DNA of 64,000 nucleotides from Candidatus Eiseniibacteriota bacterium (GTDB lineage Bacteria > Eisenbacteria > RBG-16-71-46 > CAVPCR01 > CBDCWB01): assembly GCA_965223205.1 (NCBI GenBank), contig OZ244990.1:2761632-2825631 (forward strand), given 5' to 3'. Positions 11,876 through 17,943 of this stretch are shown piece after piece. Every line of letters begins with the position of its first letter. Within the stretch, counting starts at the first letter, position 1. A model generated the notes under the pieces. The model had not been told where the DNA came from, did not search any database, and was given only the letters and a program-made list of their open reading frames with translations. Both the position numbers and the translations under genes were made by a program.

Positions 11876-12372
11876 CGTCTGGGTCCAGGGTGGCGGAAAT
11901 CACCGCTCTGGCCGCCACTTTTTTCGGCCAGGTAAACCGACTCGATGATCATGGCGCGGTCGATCGCCTTCAGCATGTCGTAGAGACCCAGGGCCGCGGC
12001 GGACGCTGCCACCAGTGCTTCCATTTCGACGCCGGTGCGCCCGCGCGCGCGCGCCGTTGCGGAGATCGTGACGCGCCGCTGGTCGCCGTCGAGCTGGAAG
12101 TCGATTTCCACCTGATCCAACGGCACCGTGTGGCAGAGGGGGATCCAGTCGGCGGTGCGTTTGGCCGCCTGGATGCCGGCCAGCCGCGCGACCCCCAGGG
12201 CGTTGCCTTTGGGAACGGTCCCAGCGCTGAGTGTTTCGAACGCCTCGGCCGACATCTGGAGCGTGGCAAGCGCTACGGCGCGCCGTTGAGTCTCGGGCTT
12301 GGCGCCGACATCCACCATGTGTGCATTGCCCTCGGCATCGAGATGCGTCCAAGCTTGTTGACGATCCGCCAT
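11872..12372 (-). CDS. moaC: Cyclic pyranopterin monophosphate synthase
   Basis: HLD..G.AHMVDV, ARLAGIQAAKRTADWIPLCH, TGVEMEAL, YDMLKAIDR, KSGGQSG. Confidence 0.97.
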   Translation of the reverse strand: MADRQQAWTHLDAEGNAHMVDVGAKPETQRRAVALATLQMSAEAFETLSAGTVPKGNALGVARLAGIQAAKRTADWIPLCHTVPLDQVEIDFQLDGDQRRVTISATARARGRTGVEMEALVAASAAALGLYDMLKAIDRAMIIESVYLAEKSGGQSGDFRHPGPRR

Positions 12373-12424
12373 CCAGAGACCATATCACGGTGCCAGCCAG
12401 CCCCCGTGCTACGATCGCCGGCCC

Positions 12425-13465
12425 ATGGCGAGTGAACCCGGGTACAAAGTCGGCAAGCGGATTTCCCCGCGCCAGGCTGCGGTGTTGCAGAGTCAGGATG
12501 TAGTCGGTTCGACGCCGGCCATGCGGCGCCTGTTTCGCTTCATCGAAAAAATTGCCAAGACCGACAGCTCGGTCTTGATCACGGGTGAGTCGGGGACCGG
12601 CAAGGAGCTGGTGGCGCGCTCGATTCACATGCTCTCGGACCGCGCCGACGCCCCCTTTTTGCCGGTCAACGCCGCCGCGCTCCCGGAGACGCTGGTCGAG
12701 AGCGAGTTGTTTGGGCACGCCAAGGGTGCGTTTACCGGCGCCGACCGCGCCAAGACCGGGCTGGTGGACATGGCCGCCGGCGGTACGTTGTTCCTCGATG
12801 AAGTTGCCGAGATGCCGCTGCCGCTTCAGGCAAAACTCCTGCGCATGCTCCAGTTCGGCGAGGTGCGGGCGGTGGGCGCCGCCGACGTGCGGCGCGTTGA
12901 CGTGCGGGTGGTGGCCGCTACCAACATGCCGCCCAAGCGCGCCATCCGCGAAGGGCGGCTGCGGGAAGACCTCTACTACCGGTTGAGCGTCTTTCACCTG
13001 GAGGTGCCGCCGCTTCGCGAGCGGCGCGAGGACATTCCGCTTTTGGCCAGCTATTTTCTAGAAAAGTTCTGCCAGCGCTCGGGCAAGCGCATGATGCGGA
13101 TCGACCAAGAGGCGCAGGTGGCGCTCTTGCGCTACGACTATCCGGGCAACGTCCGCGAGTTGGAAAACGCCATGGAGCGGGCCGTCGCCTTGGCCGACGG
13201 AGCCACCATCACCCTGGCTGAGTTGCCGCGGGAAATTGTCGAACGGCGCTTTCCCAGCTTGCCCGGCGGTGGTCTCGCCCCCGACGCCGAGCCCACCGCC
13301 GGGGGTGCTTACCCGGTGGATTGGACGCTGGAGGAAGTGGAGCGCGTGCACATCGAGCGCGTCCTGGCCGATGTCGACGGCAACGCCACCCTGGCCGCTG
13401 AGCGGTTGGGTATTTCGCGGACCACCCTCTGGCGGAAGATGAAGCGCTACCAGATCGAGCGCTAG
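12425..13465 (+). CDS. Sigma54-dependent activator (AAA+ and Fis-type HTH) with no N-terminal regulatory domain
   Basis: [37 protein letters not shown]-type [14 protein letters not shown]-terminal [15 protein letters not shown]. Only ~25 aa precede the AAA domain. Confidence 0.94.
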
Positions 13466-13491
13466 GACCGCGCCGCGAAGCAGTGGCAGCC

Positions 13492-13552
13492 GCTGCATTG
13501 TGTAACACCCGCCGAACGCCGCTCAAGCTCAGTGACCGTTTCATGTTGCACC
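13492..13552. promoter_or_regulatory. Two related imperfect palindromes, candidate sigma54 upstream activator sites
   Basis: GCTGCA-TTG-TGTAAC (13492-13506) and GTTTCA-TGT-TGCACC (13538-13552), both approximating GTTKCA-N3-TGMAAC. They lie about 60-120 nt upstream of the -24 element. Confidence 0.45.
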
Positions 13553-13613
13553 GCTGGCGCGATTGGGATTTACTAAGTGATGTATTGGTATTGACTTATA
13601 GAATTTATGCTAG

Positions 13614-13629
13614 TGGCATGCCGATTGCT
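13614..13629 (+). promoter_or_regulatory. Sigma54 (-24/-12) promoter upstream of dnaK
   Basis: TGGCATG-CCGA-TTGCT with exact GG-N10-GC spacing, preceded by an AT-rich tract (13561-13612). Confidence 0.75.
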
Positions 13630-13688
13630 CATCTAACCCGGCGACCCGTAGCCTTTTGAGTTTGATTCGGAAAGGGGCCACACCACGC

Positions 13689-15584
<1,896 letters not shown>

Positions 15585-15810
15585 CCGGCCCATTGGCTCA
15601 TGCGCGGGCGGTACCAGCTTGGTATCGCCCCGCCGTCACTGCCGCTGTAAAAGGCGCGTCAGTCAGCCGCGAACCGCCGGCACCGCTCGAACCATCCTCG
15701 AACCGCCGGTGTAGTCAGGCGAAGAAAGCCTGCCCAGGAAGACAACCACCGCCGGCCAAATCCGCCGGCCCGACCCCCGTGTGTTACGAGTTCTTTGGAG
15801 GAACCAACCC

Positions 15811-17334
15811 ATGAGTCGACTGACGATCGTCAAACGCGGAGGCCCACTGGTCGTGGCCGGTGTTATCGCCGGACTCGTCCTGGCTGCCGGTCTCAACTGG
15901 ACGAGCGTTTCTAAGAGCCAGACGCAGGAGCTGGCTGGTTCGGACGCCGAGGTGCCGGCTGAGCTCTTGGTATTCGATCAGTTCAACCGCGCCTTTCAGA
16001 CGGCCGCCGAGTTGGCCCGCCCCAGCGTTGTCACCGTCACCTCGGAGCGCGTCGTCCGGCCTACCGAGCGCCGCGTGCCCGACAGCCACCCGTTCCGGGA
16101 GTTTTTTGGCGAAGACTTCCTGGACCGCTTCTGGAATTTCCATGGGGGCGACGAGTTTCGCTCCAATGGCCTGGGATCGGGCGTCATCGTTTCCGAGGAC
16201 GGTCTCGTCTTGACCAACAACCACGTTATCGACAGCGCCGACCAGATCCAGGTGGTCTTGGCCGATGACCGCGAATACGCCGCCGAGGTGGTCGGCACCG
16301 ACCCGGCCTCCGACCTCGCCCTGTTGCGAATCGACGCCGGCGACCTGCCGCTGATTCGCTTCGGGCGCTCCGAAGACTTGCGAGTCGGGGAGTGGGTAAT
16401 GGCGGTGGGGAGTCCGTTCAACAAAAACTTGGACCAAACTGTCACCGCCGGCATCGTCAGCGCCAAGGGCCGCCAATCCGTGGGGATCGTCGACTTCGAG
16501 GACTTCATTCAGACAGACGCCGCCATCAACCCGGGTAACTCCGGGGGCGCGCTCATCAACATGCGCGGCGAGTTGGTGGGGATCAACACGGCAATCGCGA
16601 CGCGATCGGGCGGCGGGCAGGGGGTCGGCTTCGCCATCCCCATCGCCATGGCGCGCTCGGTGATGAACGACCTCTTGAACGAAGGTCGCGTCATCCGTGG
16701 CTGGCTGGGCGTCGTCATCCGCACGGTCGACGAGGACTTAGCCGCCGGTCTTGATCTGGAGACGCAGCGTGGAGTCCTAATCAACGACCTCACCGAGGAC
16801 GGGCCGGCCCACCAGGCCGGTGTGGAGCGCGGTGACGTGGTCCTGGAGTTCAACGGCACCGAGGTGAAAGACGCCGACCACCTGCAGAACCTGGTGGCCG
16901 CCGTCAAGCCTGGTGGCTCGTGTGAGCTCGAGGTCTGGCGCGATGGCAAGCGCCGGGACTTGGCGGTCAAACTCGGCGAGCGTCCGGAAGATCCGAGCGC
17001 TGTCTTCGCCGGTGGCTCCGAGCCGTCAGCGAGCGATGCTGTCGCCCAGTTGGGACTCAGCCTGCGTGAACTGCCTGCCGCCGAGGCGCGCGAGATGGAC
17101 CTCGAACAAGGGGTCCTGGTGCATGGCATTCGTCGCGGAAGCCCGGCGGCGGCTAAGAACATCCGCCAGGGGGATGTCCTCTTGGAGGTCGACCGCCAGG
17201 GGGTTTCGAGCCCCAAGGACGTGGCGGCGGCGTTGGATGACTTGGAGCCCACCGATCCGGTCCTGTTGCTGCTCCAGCGCGGCCAAACAACGTTCTACAC
17301 CGCGCTCAAGATGCCGGCCGAGACCGACGATTAG
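15811..17334 (+). CDS. degP: DegP/HtrA (Do family) periplasmic serine protease with two PDZ domains
   Basis: GLGSGVIV, TNNHV, DPASDLA, IQTDAAINPGNSGG. GGAGG RBS before ATG 15811. Confidence 0.93.
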   Translation: MSRLTIVKRGGPLVVAGVIAGLVLAAGLNWTSVSKSQTQELAGSDAEVPAELLVFDQFNRAFQTAAELARPSVVTVTSERVVRPTERRVPDSHPFREFFGEDFLDRFWNFHGGDEFRSNGLGSGVIVSEDGLVLTNNHVIDSADQIQVVLADDREYAAEVVGTDPASDLALLRIDAGDLPLIRFGRSEDLRVGEWVMAVGSPFNKNLDQTVTAGIVSAKGRQSVGIVDFEDFIQTDAAINPGNSGGALINMRGELVGINTAIATRSGGGQGVGFAIPIAMARSVMNDLLNEGRVIRGWLGVVIRTVDEDLAAGLDLETQRGVLINDLTEDGPAHQAGVERGDVVLEFNGTEVKDADHLQNLVAAVKPGGSCELEVWRDGKRRDLAVKLGERPEDPSAVFAGGSEPSASDAVAQLGLSLRELPAAEAREMDLEQGVLVHGIRRGSPAAAKNIRQGDVLLEVDRQGVSSPKDVAAALDDLEPTDPVLLLLQRGQTTFYTALKMPAETDD

Positions 17335-17417
17335 CCAGAAGGGGAGGCGAGCACCGGCAGGCCGCCCGGGTCGGCCTTGGAATCTTGGAACCCTTGTTGC
17401 AGAACGGGTTTGATGCC

Positions 17418-17423
17418 TATAAT
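17418..17423 (+). promoter_or_regulatory. Consensus -10 element at the head of a long non-coding stretch
   Basis: TATAAT, with TTGTTG 18 nt upstream as a weak -35. Predicted start near 17430. Confidence 0.55.
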
Positions 17424-17430
17424 GCGATAA

Positions 17431-17943
17431 GGTGTGCCCTTCTGCGCGGCGACTGAACGTGAGGTGAGCGGGCGAGGTTGGTTTCTGGGCGCTCCAGGCA
17501 ACCCGCCTCGCTCCCCAGCCCAAAACGGCTCGGGCGGTCGAGGACGCGCAGGGCCCAGATGAGTCAGTTGGATTTTGCTTTGGTGAGAGGTGCCAGGCAC
17601 GCGTTATGGCGCCGATGGTCGCGCAGGACTTGCCCCGGCCCGGCGCCCAGCGCCTCTGAGTAGAATGCCTGCCGGCGCGCCGACCGGTTCAGCCAACGAG
17701 GGCTGGGCTACGGAGGCGGCCGCGAAGAGCAGGTGAGATGCACGACGCGCGTAGTCGATCCGCTAGCGTCAACTTGGATCTGATCGACCGCGCTGGGATG
17801 GCCGTTGCCGTCCCCGCTGGCCTGAGCTAAGAGCAAAGTCCATGACCGCGCTGAGAATAGCCCGGCGCGGTCGCGTCCGGTGCCGTGACTTTTGCGGCGC
17901 CGACAGGAATGGAGCGCATCCATGAAGCTGGGTGCGCTTTTTT
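17431..17943 (+). ncRNA. Candidate large structured non-coding RNA or structured leader (~510 nt), family unassigned
   Basis: Bounded by a promoter and a terminator, no convincing ORF, at least 8 helices found by eye (several with G-U pairs), plus long-range complementarities. See findings. Confidence 0.45.
17913..17943 (+). terminator. Intrinsic terminator or attenuator
   Basis: AGCGCATCCA-TGAAGC-TGGGTGCGCT stem-loop followed by TTTTTGCTTTT, about 20 nt before the next ATG. Confidence 0.75.

Follow-up and report, generated by a model that had tools for sequence, protein, structure and literature searches.

In a 64-kb window of the genome of an uncultured soil bacterium, Candidatus Eisenbacteria, we find dnaK behind a predicted sigma-54 promoter with candidate upstream activator sites of its own, downstream of a gene (12425-13465, + strand) whose product probably serves as a dedicated enhancer-binding protein for a small set of chaperone genes under sigma-54. 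The window (64.5% GC) belongs to a 5.27-Mb genome (64% GC, 39 contigs), in which it maps to G000:C1:2761632-2825631; to our knowledge the phylum has no cultured member. All the evidence for the wiring was obtained in silico, from sequence and comparative genomics, and by these means the wiring is found to exist and to be conserved across the phylum. A preliminary description of this DNA had proposed a sigma-54 enhancer circuit for chaperone genes, governed by an activator without sensor domains. Comparative genomics strongly supports that proposal and adds as a second target hsp20, which encodes a small heat-shock protein (sHSP), so that the regulon fits one responding to proteotoxic stress.

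The activator is a protein of 346 residues with the domains of a bacterial enhancer-binding protein (bEBP). Pfam places Sigma54_activat (PF00158) at residues 27-192 (224.9 bits against a cut-off of 20.2), AAA_lid_14 (PF25601) at residues 198-274 and, at the C-terminus, a Fis-type helix-turn-helix (HTH) domain, HTH_8 (PF02954), at residues 301-342 (58 bits). Walker A (GESGTGKE, residues 54-61), the GAFTGA loop (residues 101-106) and Walker B (LFLDEV, residues 122-127) are all intact. The same scan of the 346 residues found no receiver (REC), GAF or PAS domain and no match to PF00072; the N-terminal receiver of an NtrC-family response regulator is thus missing, and in both domains and motifs the protein is as the preliminary description had it. 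An in-frame stop lies 21 codons 5' of the activator ATG and a divergent open reading frame, MoaC-like when read by eye, starts at 12372, which leaves no space in which a further N-terminal domain could be encoded. The long open frames found upstream in some high-GC relatives translate into Arg/Pro-rich sequence of non-coding appearance and not into domains. The 25-60 residues that precede the AAA+ domain vary in sequence and length across the phylum, where they are not conserved, and are probably disordered. The partners required of a bEBP are present as well: rpoN, which the proposed circuit presupposes, is encoded at G000:C1:3752140-3752619 (214.5 bits), and there is a -24/-12 target.

The DNA between the activator gene and dnaK has the geometry of a standard enhancer-dependent promoter, with two dyads, an AT-rich spacer and a -24/-12 element. 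The last of these, TGGCATGCCGATTGCT (13614-13629, + strand; TGGCAT-N5-TTGCT), is predicted from a motif scan together with its conservation. Nothing else in the window matches TGGCAY-N5-TTGCW, for which 0.11 occurrences would be expected, and the element ends 59 nt 5' of the dnaK ATG (13689); this is the GG-N10-GC promoter that had been placed about 60 nt before dnaK. With the usual spacing, 12 nt past the C of the -12 GC (13628), transcription would start at 13640 (+ strand, +/-1 nt). Consensus scanning of 12200-17600 found no sigma-70-type promoter, and no canonical terminator was found on the + strand in the same interval. The AT-rich tract noticed earlier spans 13563-13613 (51 bp, 29% GC) and is probably a bending or looping region between enhancer and promoter; similar stretches are visible in the intergenic regions of relatives, and the consensus for IHF, WATCAA-N4-TTR, was not found in the tract.

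The dyads are candidate upstream activator sites (UASs), neither of them assigned to a strand. Site 1, GCTGCATTGTGTAAC (13492-13506), is centred at about -141 from the predicted start, matches the phylum consensus GTTTCA-N3-TGAAAC at 9 of 12 positions and scores 13.1 with a position weight matrix (PWM). Site 2, GTTTCATGTTGCACC (13538-13552), is centred at about -95, matches at 10 of 12 positions and scores 11.4. These are the two related palindromes of the preliminary description, found where it had put them. Taken alone, they are not beyond chance, being too short and imperfect, and an automated repeat search of 13440-13700 reported neither. Together they form one of only two site pairs 5' of a sigma-54 motif in the whole 5.27-Mb genome, and the ten 3' bases of site 1, ATTGTGTAAC, are identical to the ten 3' bases of one site in the other pair, that of hsp20.

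This second pair was found by a genome-wide scan, which gave 112 strict sigma-54 motifs and a UAS-like pair within 220 bp upstream only at dnaK and hsp20. Away from these two genes, the 16 top-scoring UAS-like sites that stand singly have no promoter nearby. The hsp20 gene (C1:1100978-1101403, - strand) lies 1.66 Mb from dnaK and encodes an alpha-crystallin-type sHSP of 141 residues, an identification made by eye and with tblastn, which matched it to hsp20 genes in relatives. Its predicted promoter, TGGCACGCCTGCTGCT, and its two putative UASs, GTTCCACAATGGAAC and GTTCTATTGTGTAAC, both strong, lie on the - strand in the region G000:C1:1100978-1101663. Since relatives often have hsp20 between the activator gene and dnaK, this lineage appears to have broken up the operon.

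Conservation was examined at the level of the protein, of the locus and of the DNA elements. In 40 relatives from the same class, the best match to the activator in each genome has 53-66% identity (E from 1e-97 to 1e-127) and the remaining matches about 45-52% (E about 1e-85), a gap that is clear in nearly all 40 genomes. At E <= 1e-92 an orthologue is present in 130 of the 151 genomes of a phylum-wide sample, covering 107 of 118 high-quality genomes and 68 of 72 genera, and there is exactly one per genome in all but G002. The recognition helix, LGISR[ST]TLWRK, is nearly invariant. In a maximum-likelihood tree, which also took in 22 paralogues from the genome itself and the best matches of ten metagenome-assembled genomes (MAGs) of the FCB and PVC groups (Bacteroidota, Ignavibacteria, Fibrobacterota, Gemmatimonadota, Verrucomicrobia and Planctomycetota), 30 Eisenbacteria activators fall into one clade with support of 100/99, and all the other sequences bar one lie outside it; the bootstrap of this tree had not fully converged.

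The single sequence that nests inside the clade, weakly, is a 470-residue bEBP from a Fibrobacterota MAG (L156, G050:C10) with a receiver-like N-terminal region when read by eye. Its gene adjoins a thioesterase-like gene (also by eye) and no chaperone gene, and it may be a relative in the ancestral, receiver-bearing state. The short bEBPs of a Cytophagia MAG and a Planctomycetota MAG, considered as orthologues, were placed elsewhere in the tree, and the ten FCB/PVC genomes contained nothing above paralogue level. A contig scan for orthologues beyond the phylum likewise gave paralogue-level matches only (43-53% identity), of which 77 of 80 have room for an N-terminal domain and none is linked to hsp20 or to a co-directional dnaK. 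Of the homologues among the matches listed from 5.8 billion proteins, 119 of 120 are 303-399 residues long, have the same three domains and carry generic names only; the exception, P0017, has 499 residues and includes a receiver domain (PF00072).

The locus is conserved along with the protein. In 20 of 29 loci from relatives, dnaK lies within 1.5 kb downstream of the activator gene; it follows directly in nine, after a spacer of 173-362 bp, and in the remaining linked loci a gene of about 150 codons stands between the two, being hsp20 in about ten. Of the 20 linked loci, 19 have a sigma-54 motif of the form TGG[CT][AC]-N7-TGC no more than 300 bp from the stop codon of the activator gene (mean 0.39 and maximum 3 in shuffled sequences), and 17 have a site with at most three mismatches to GTTTCA-N3-TGAAAC no more than 200 bp from it (mean 1.17 and maximum 4 in shuffles), the sites starting 2-70 bp from the stop codon in most cases. 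The orthologous promoters therefore bear out the preliminary description. Ten loci were usable from the families in which the activator gene is not linked to its presumed targets (f8, f10 and f11): nine hold an hsp20-dnaK operon with a sigma-54 element 5' of hsp20, and in the tenth the element is directly 5' of dnaK. UAS-like sites occur 100-160 bp further upstream in these loci and are more divergent in family f10; in five unlinked loci outside the PWM training set they score 14-22. No partner gene is conserved upstream of the activator beyond family-level synteny, and hsp20 and dnaK are its only conserved genomic partners. Two orthologues from family f15 (L030 and L031) have GAFTDA in place of GAFTGA in the sigma-54 contact loop, and at L031 there is also no strict -24/-12 match 5' of dnaK.

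A working model of the circuit can be put together from these elements. Dimers of the Fis-type HTH would occupy the two GTTTCA-N3-TGAAAC-type sites, which lie some 95 and 141 bp before the start, and the AAA+ domains would assemble into a ring. The AT-rich spacer would let the bound ring loop to the sigma-54 holoenzyme, held closed on TGGCAT-N5-TTGCT, and ATP hydrolysis acting through the GAFTGA loop would open the promoter. In this scheme dnaK would be transcribed, possibly with the htrA-like gene beyond it, and the same arrangement would drive hsp20 1.66 Mb away. From synteny and co-occurrence we infer that the sites are bound by this activator and not by another bEBP, and the targets, an Hsp70 and an sHSP, suggest heat or unfolded protein as the signal.

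Several points weigh against this interpretation. Both palindromes at dnaK are inverted repeats at only 4 of 6 positions, and with PWM scores of 13.1 and 11.4 they are weak against the 18-26 of the best sites. The PWM was itself partly built from the loci that it scored, a circularity that the mismatch-count test and the new loci reduce and do not remove. Synteny and co-occurrence are what assign the sites to this activator, in a genome that encodes about 27 other bEBPs. A larger regulon was considered and rejected: no -24/-12 element stands before groES-groEL, mcsB-clpC, grpE-dnaJ or lon. Moreover, dnaK is the one full-length Hsp70 match that the genome gave; if it were fully enhancer-dependent, it would need permanent basal activity of the activator, and therefore an extra housekeeping promoter for dnaK may exist.

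How far do these points favour other explanations of the same DNA? The least probable is that the -24/-12 element and the palindromes are coincidental and that dnaK is transcribed from a sigma-70-type promoter in the AT-rich tract. The tract does contain a -10-like TAGAAT (13599-13604) and the palindromes are individually weak, but the consensus scan found no such promoter, the sigma-54 motif keeps its position in 19 of 20 relatives, where shuffles average 0.39, and motif and sites recur together at hsp20; we regard this explanation as highly improbable. It is also very unlikely, if slightly less so, that enhancer and promoter are real and served by another of the many bEBPs, the adjacency of the activator gene to dnaK being historical. 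The families in which the activator lies away from hsp20-dnaK (f8, f10 and f11) would be in keeping with this. However, the activator belongs to the only bEBP group that is phylum-wide, single-copy and target-linked in most families; in most linked loci 2-70 bp separate its stop codon from the start of the sites; and its nearly invariant recognition helix goes in step with a conserved site. A dedicated activator thus remains the reading that we prefer.

If the activator is dedicated to dnaK and hsp20, its input should come in trans or through its own abundance, because it has no sensor domain, no conserved neighbour beyond hsp20 and dnaK, and no PspA for a partner. The hypothesis that we favour, and hold only tentatively, is chaperone titration, in which free DnaK/DnaJ or Hsp20 would keep the activator inactive and non-hexameric until unfolded proteins release it; the preliminary description had likewise raised a trans-acting inhibitor, with DnaK feedback as one hypothesis. 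Titration loops of this kind are formed by sigma-32 with DnaK/DnaJ, by HspR with DnaK and by HrcA with GroEL. The analogy is that a regulator of chaperone genes would plausibly respond to how much of its own target chaperones is free, hsp20 and dnaK being the sole conserved partners here; the known regulators, however, are a sigma-70-family factor or repressors, whereas here it would be an AAA+ sigma-54 activator in a hypothetical interaction. We rank next, as a doubtful but serious possibility, that the activator is always active and gives steady transcription of dnaK and hsp20, with no bound inhibitor, induction coming from sigma competition or from changes in activator amount set by its own transcription or by proteolysis (Lon, FtsH or Clp). 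In NtrC1 and DctD the receiver acts negatively and its loss leads to constitutive activity, a logic that would carry over to an activator whose sequence groups with NtrC1, ZraR and FleQ and not with PspF. The need for basal expression of the sole Hsp70 gene, and the lack of PspA and of a conserved neighbouring partner gene, point the same way. Against this, it would be unusual for a phylum to keep a costly ATP-dependent enhancer system just to express genes constitutively, the gene regulated along with dnaK encodes an sHSP, typically stress-induced, and the sigma-54 chaperone promoters of Flavobacterium psychrophilum are induced by condition (PMC9723704). An unlikely third option is that the activator senses temperature itself, for instance by oligomerisation or by unfolding of its variable N-terminal tail. 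Such a sensor would need neither a sensor domain nor a conserved partner gene, and the residues before the AAA+ domain are variable and probably disordered; but the phylum does not conserve this tail, which makes it an improbable sensor for the group as a whole, and we know of no temperature-sensing bEBP. Nor does the dnaK 5' untranslated region have a thermometer-like fold: an RNA thermometer was considered there and rejected, the fold being no better than those of shuffles (z = +0.64).

The preliminary description called the activator PspF-like, which holds for its domain architecture and not for its ancestry. Both NCBIfam PspF models are failed, TIGR02974 with 260.8 against a cut-off of 443.55 and PRK11608 with 221.4 against 529, and no curated NCBIfam bEBP model reaches its cut-off, the best being NorR (347.8 against 476). 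With the activator as query, the solved structures of ZraR, NtrC1, FleQ and NifA score 245-265 bits and that of PspF about 198 bits. By descent the activator is thus most likely a receiver-less protein of the NtrC/ZraR type and no PspF orthologue. The genome has no PF04012 match and hence no PspA. In layout and logic it nevertheless resembles the PspF/PspA system of E. coli, where a partner protein keeps the sensor-less bEBP inactive: both activators consist of the same three parts and start without a regulatory domain, both are encoded beside their target stress operon, both have a sigma-54 promoter preceded by a pair of sites and a region of bending, and for both the input must come in trans. 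Apart from orthology and PspA, the difference lies in the targets, which here are cytoplasmic chaperones (dnaK, hsp20) in place of the membrane-stress psp genes. The receiver-containing response regulators NtrC1, ZraR and DctD supply the nearest AAA+ and HTH sequences; the activator, however, has neither receiver domain nor cognate kinase, and therefore control by phosphorylation is impossible.

In textbook accounts, bacterial heat-shock control is the business of sigma-32 or of the repressors HrcA, HspR and CtsR. The preliminary description likewise had dnaK usually under sigma-32, HrcA/CIRCE or HspR, but its placement behind sigma-54 has precedents. In Flavobacterium psychrophilum, sigma-54 (SM4) promoters supported by mapped transcription start sites precede groESL, lon, dnaK, grpE-dnaJ, htpG and clpB, with no activator assigned (PMC9723704), and a 2025 survey with position-specific scoring matrices found chaperone clusters of orthologous groups (COGs) enriched for predicted sigma-54 promoters in Bacteroidota and Planctomycetota (PMC12316311). 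We also found sigma-54-type promoters 57-179 nt 5' of dnaK in MAGs of Bacteroidota (two, one of them Cytophagia), Gemmatimonadota, Verrucomicrobia and Planctomycetota (two) (loci L112, L114, L115, L124, L126 and L127). None of these has an adjacent activator, and each has upstream repeats of its own, which differ in sequence from GTTTCA-N3-TGAAAC; those of the verrucomicrobial locus read TGTGCCA. There is growing evidence that FCB and PVC bacteria put core chaperone genes behind sigma-54 promoters. The regulons of Flavobacterium, Bacteroidota and Planctomycetota share with ours a dnaK behind a -24/-12 promoter and the lack of sigma-32-type control. They differ in that their activator is unassigned and does not lie beside dnaK, whereas synteny names it in Eisenbacteria, and in their breadth (groESL, lon, grpE-dnaJ, htpG and clpB, against hsp20 and dnaK only). 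In this genome a promoter of the Flavobacterium type is found before dnaK, by sequence and conservation, and not at groES, clpC, grpE-dnaJ or lon.

Other heat-shock genes are also transcribed by the sigma-54 holoenzyme. The ibpB gene of E. coli has a sigma-54 promoter that is not known to have a dedicated activator, and in Myxococcus xanthus HsfA and HsfB control lonD, HsfA being a receiver-containing response regulator with a kinase partner. Literature searches returned no paper naming a heat-shock bEBP and none on regulation in Eisenbacteria, and the searchable literature on FCB and PVC sigma-54 chaperone promoters assigns no activator and gives no sensing mechanism. What is new here is therefore not the sigma-54 chaperone promoter but the assignment of a dedicated sensor-less activator and its enhancer, with a minimal regulon of hsp20 and dnaK. 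With its activator named by synteny, a defined binding site and a minimal regulon, the Eisenbacteria system is the simplest available for asking how a sensor-less AAA+ activator perceives folding stress. If titration proved true, the activator would be the first sigma-54 enhancer-binding protein to act as a proteostasis sensor, an AAA+/sigma-54 counterpart of the sigma-32, HspR and HSF1 loops, and would offer a handle on which proteins activate the chaperone regulons that sigma-54 serves in Bacteroidota, Planctomycetota and Verrucomicrobiota. For annotation, the label of hsp20/dnaK activator could replace 'NtrC family response regulator' or 'sigma-54 dependent regulator' in hundreds of genes.

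The classical regulators are missing from this genome. HrcA was not found in it, nor was CIRCE within two mismatches, and the best match to an RpoH model reached 148 bits against a cut-off of 323; neither an HrcA/CIRCE pair nor a sigma-32 regulator with its operator is therefore present. Across the phylum HrcA is patchy, occurring in 64 of 101 genomes (families f9, f10, f14 and f16 and one f6 genome). The family of this genome and several others lack it; the sigma-54 activator, by contrast, is present in nearly all of the phylum. The groES gene (- strand) has a canonical TTGACA-17-TAGGAT promoter, and upstream of groES-groEL are two TGCCA-N3-TGGCA palindromes (G000:C1:497702-497716 and 497813-497827): TTGCCAATATGGCAA lies just 3' of the -10 element and GTGCCATTTTGGCAT about 90 bp upstream. 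Since the genome lacks HrcA and CIRCE, these may be the operator of some groESL regulator. The same TGCCA-N3-TGGCA core is also seen 5' of the sigma-54-type dnaK promoters of the Gemmatimonadota MAG (L115) and of one Planctomycetota MAG (L127).

Downstream of the promoter, dnaK itself (13689-15584, + strand; Pfam HSP70, 886 bits) is followed, 228 nt past its stop codon, by a gene for an HtrA/DegP-like serine protease (15812-17334, + strand; Pfam Trypsin_2 and two PDZ domains). Whether this gene is co-transcribed with dnaK is uncertain; it possibly is. Directly 3' of the dnaK stop, at about 15606-15630, there is a hairpin with an 11-bp stem (GGGCGGTACC AGC TTGGTATCGCCC) and no U tract, and the intergenic region as a whole folds with z = -0.92. 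Beyond the window, 14-22 kb past its end, three near-identical bEBP genes of about 800 codons stand in tandem (G000:C1:2839421-2847484), and three further near-identical copies are scattered at C1:1164012, C1:4171972 and C5:15403. These copies may have arisen by recent duplication, or they may belong to a mobile element that carries a sigma-54 activator.

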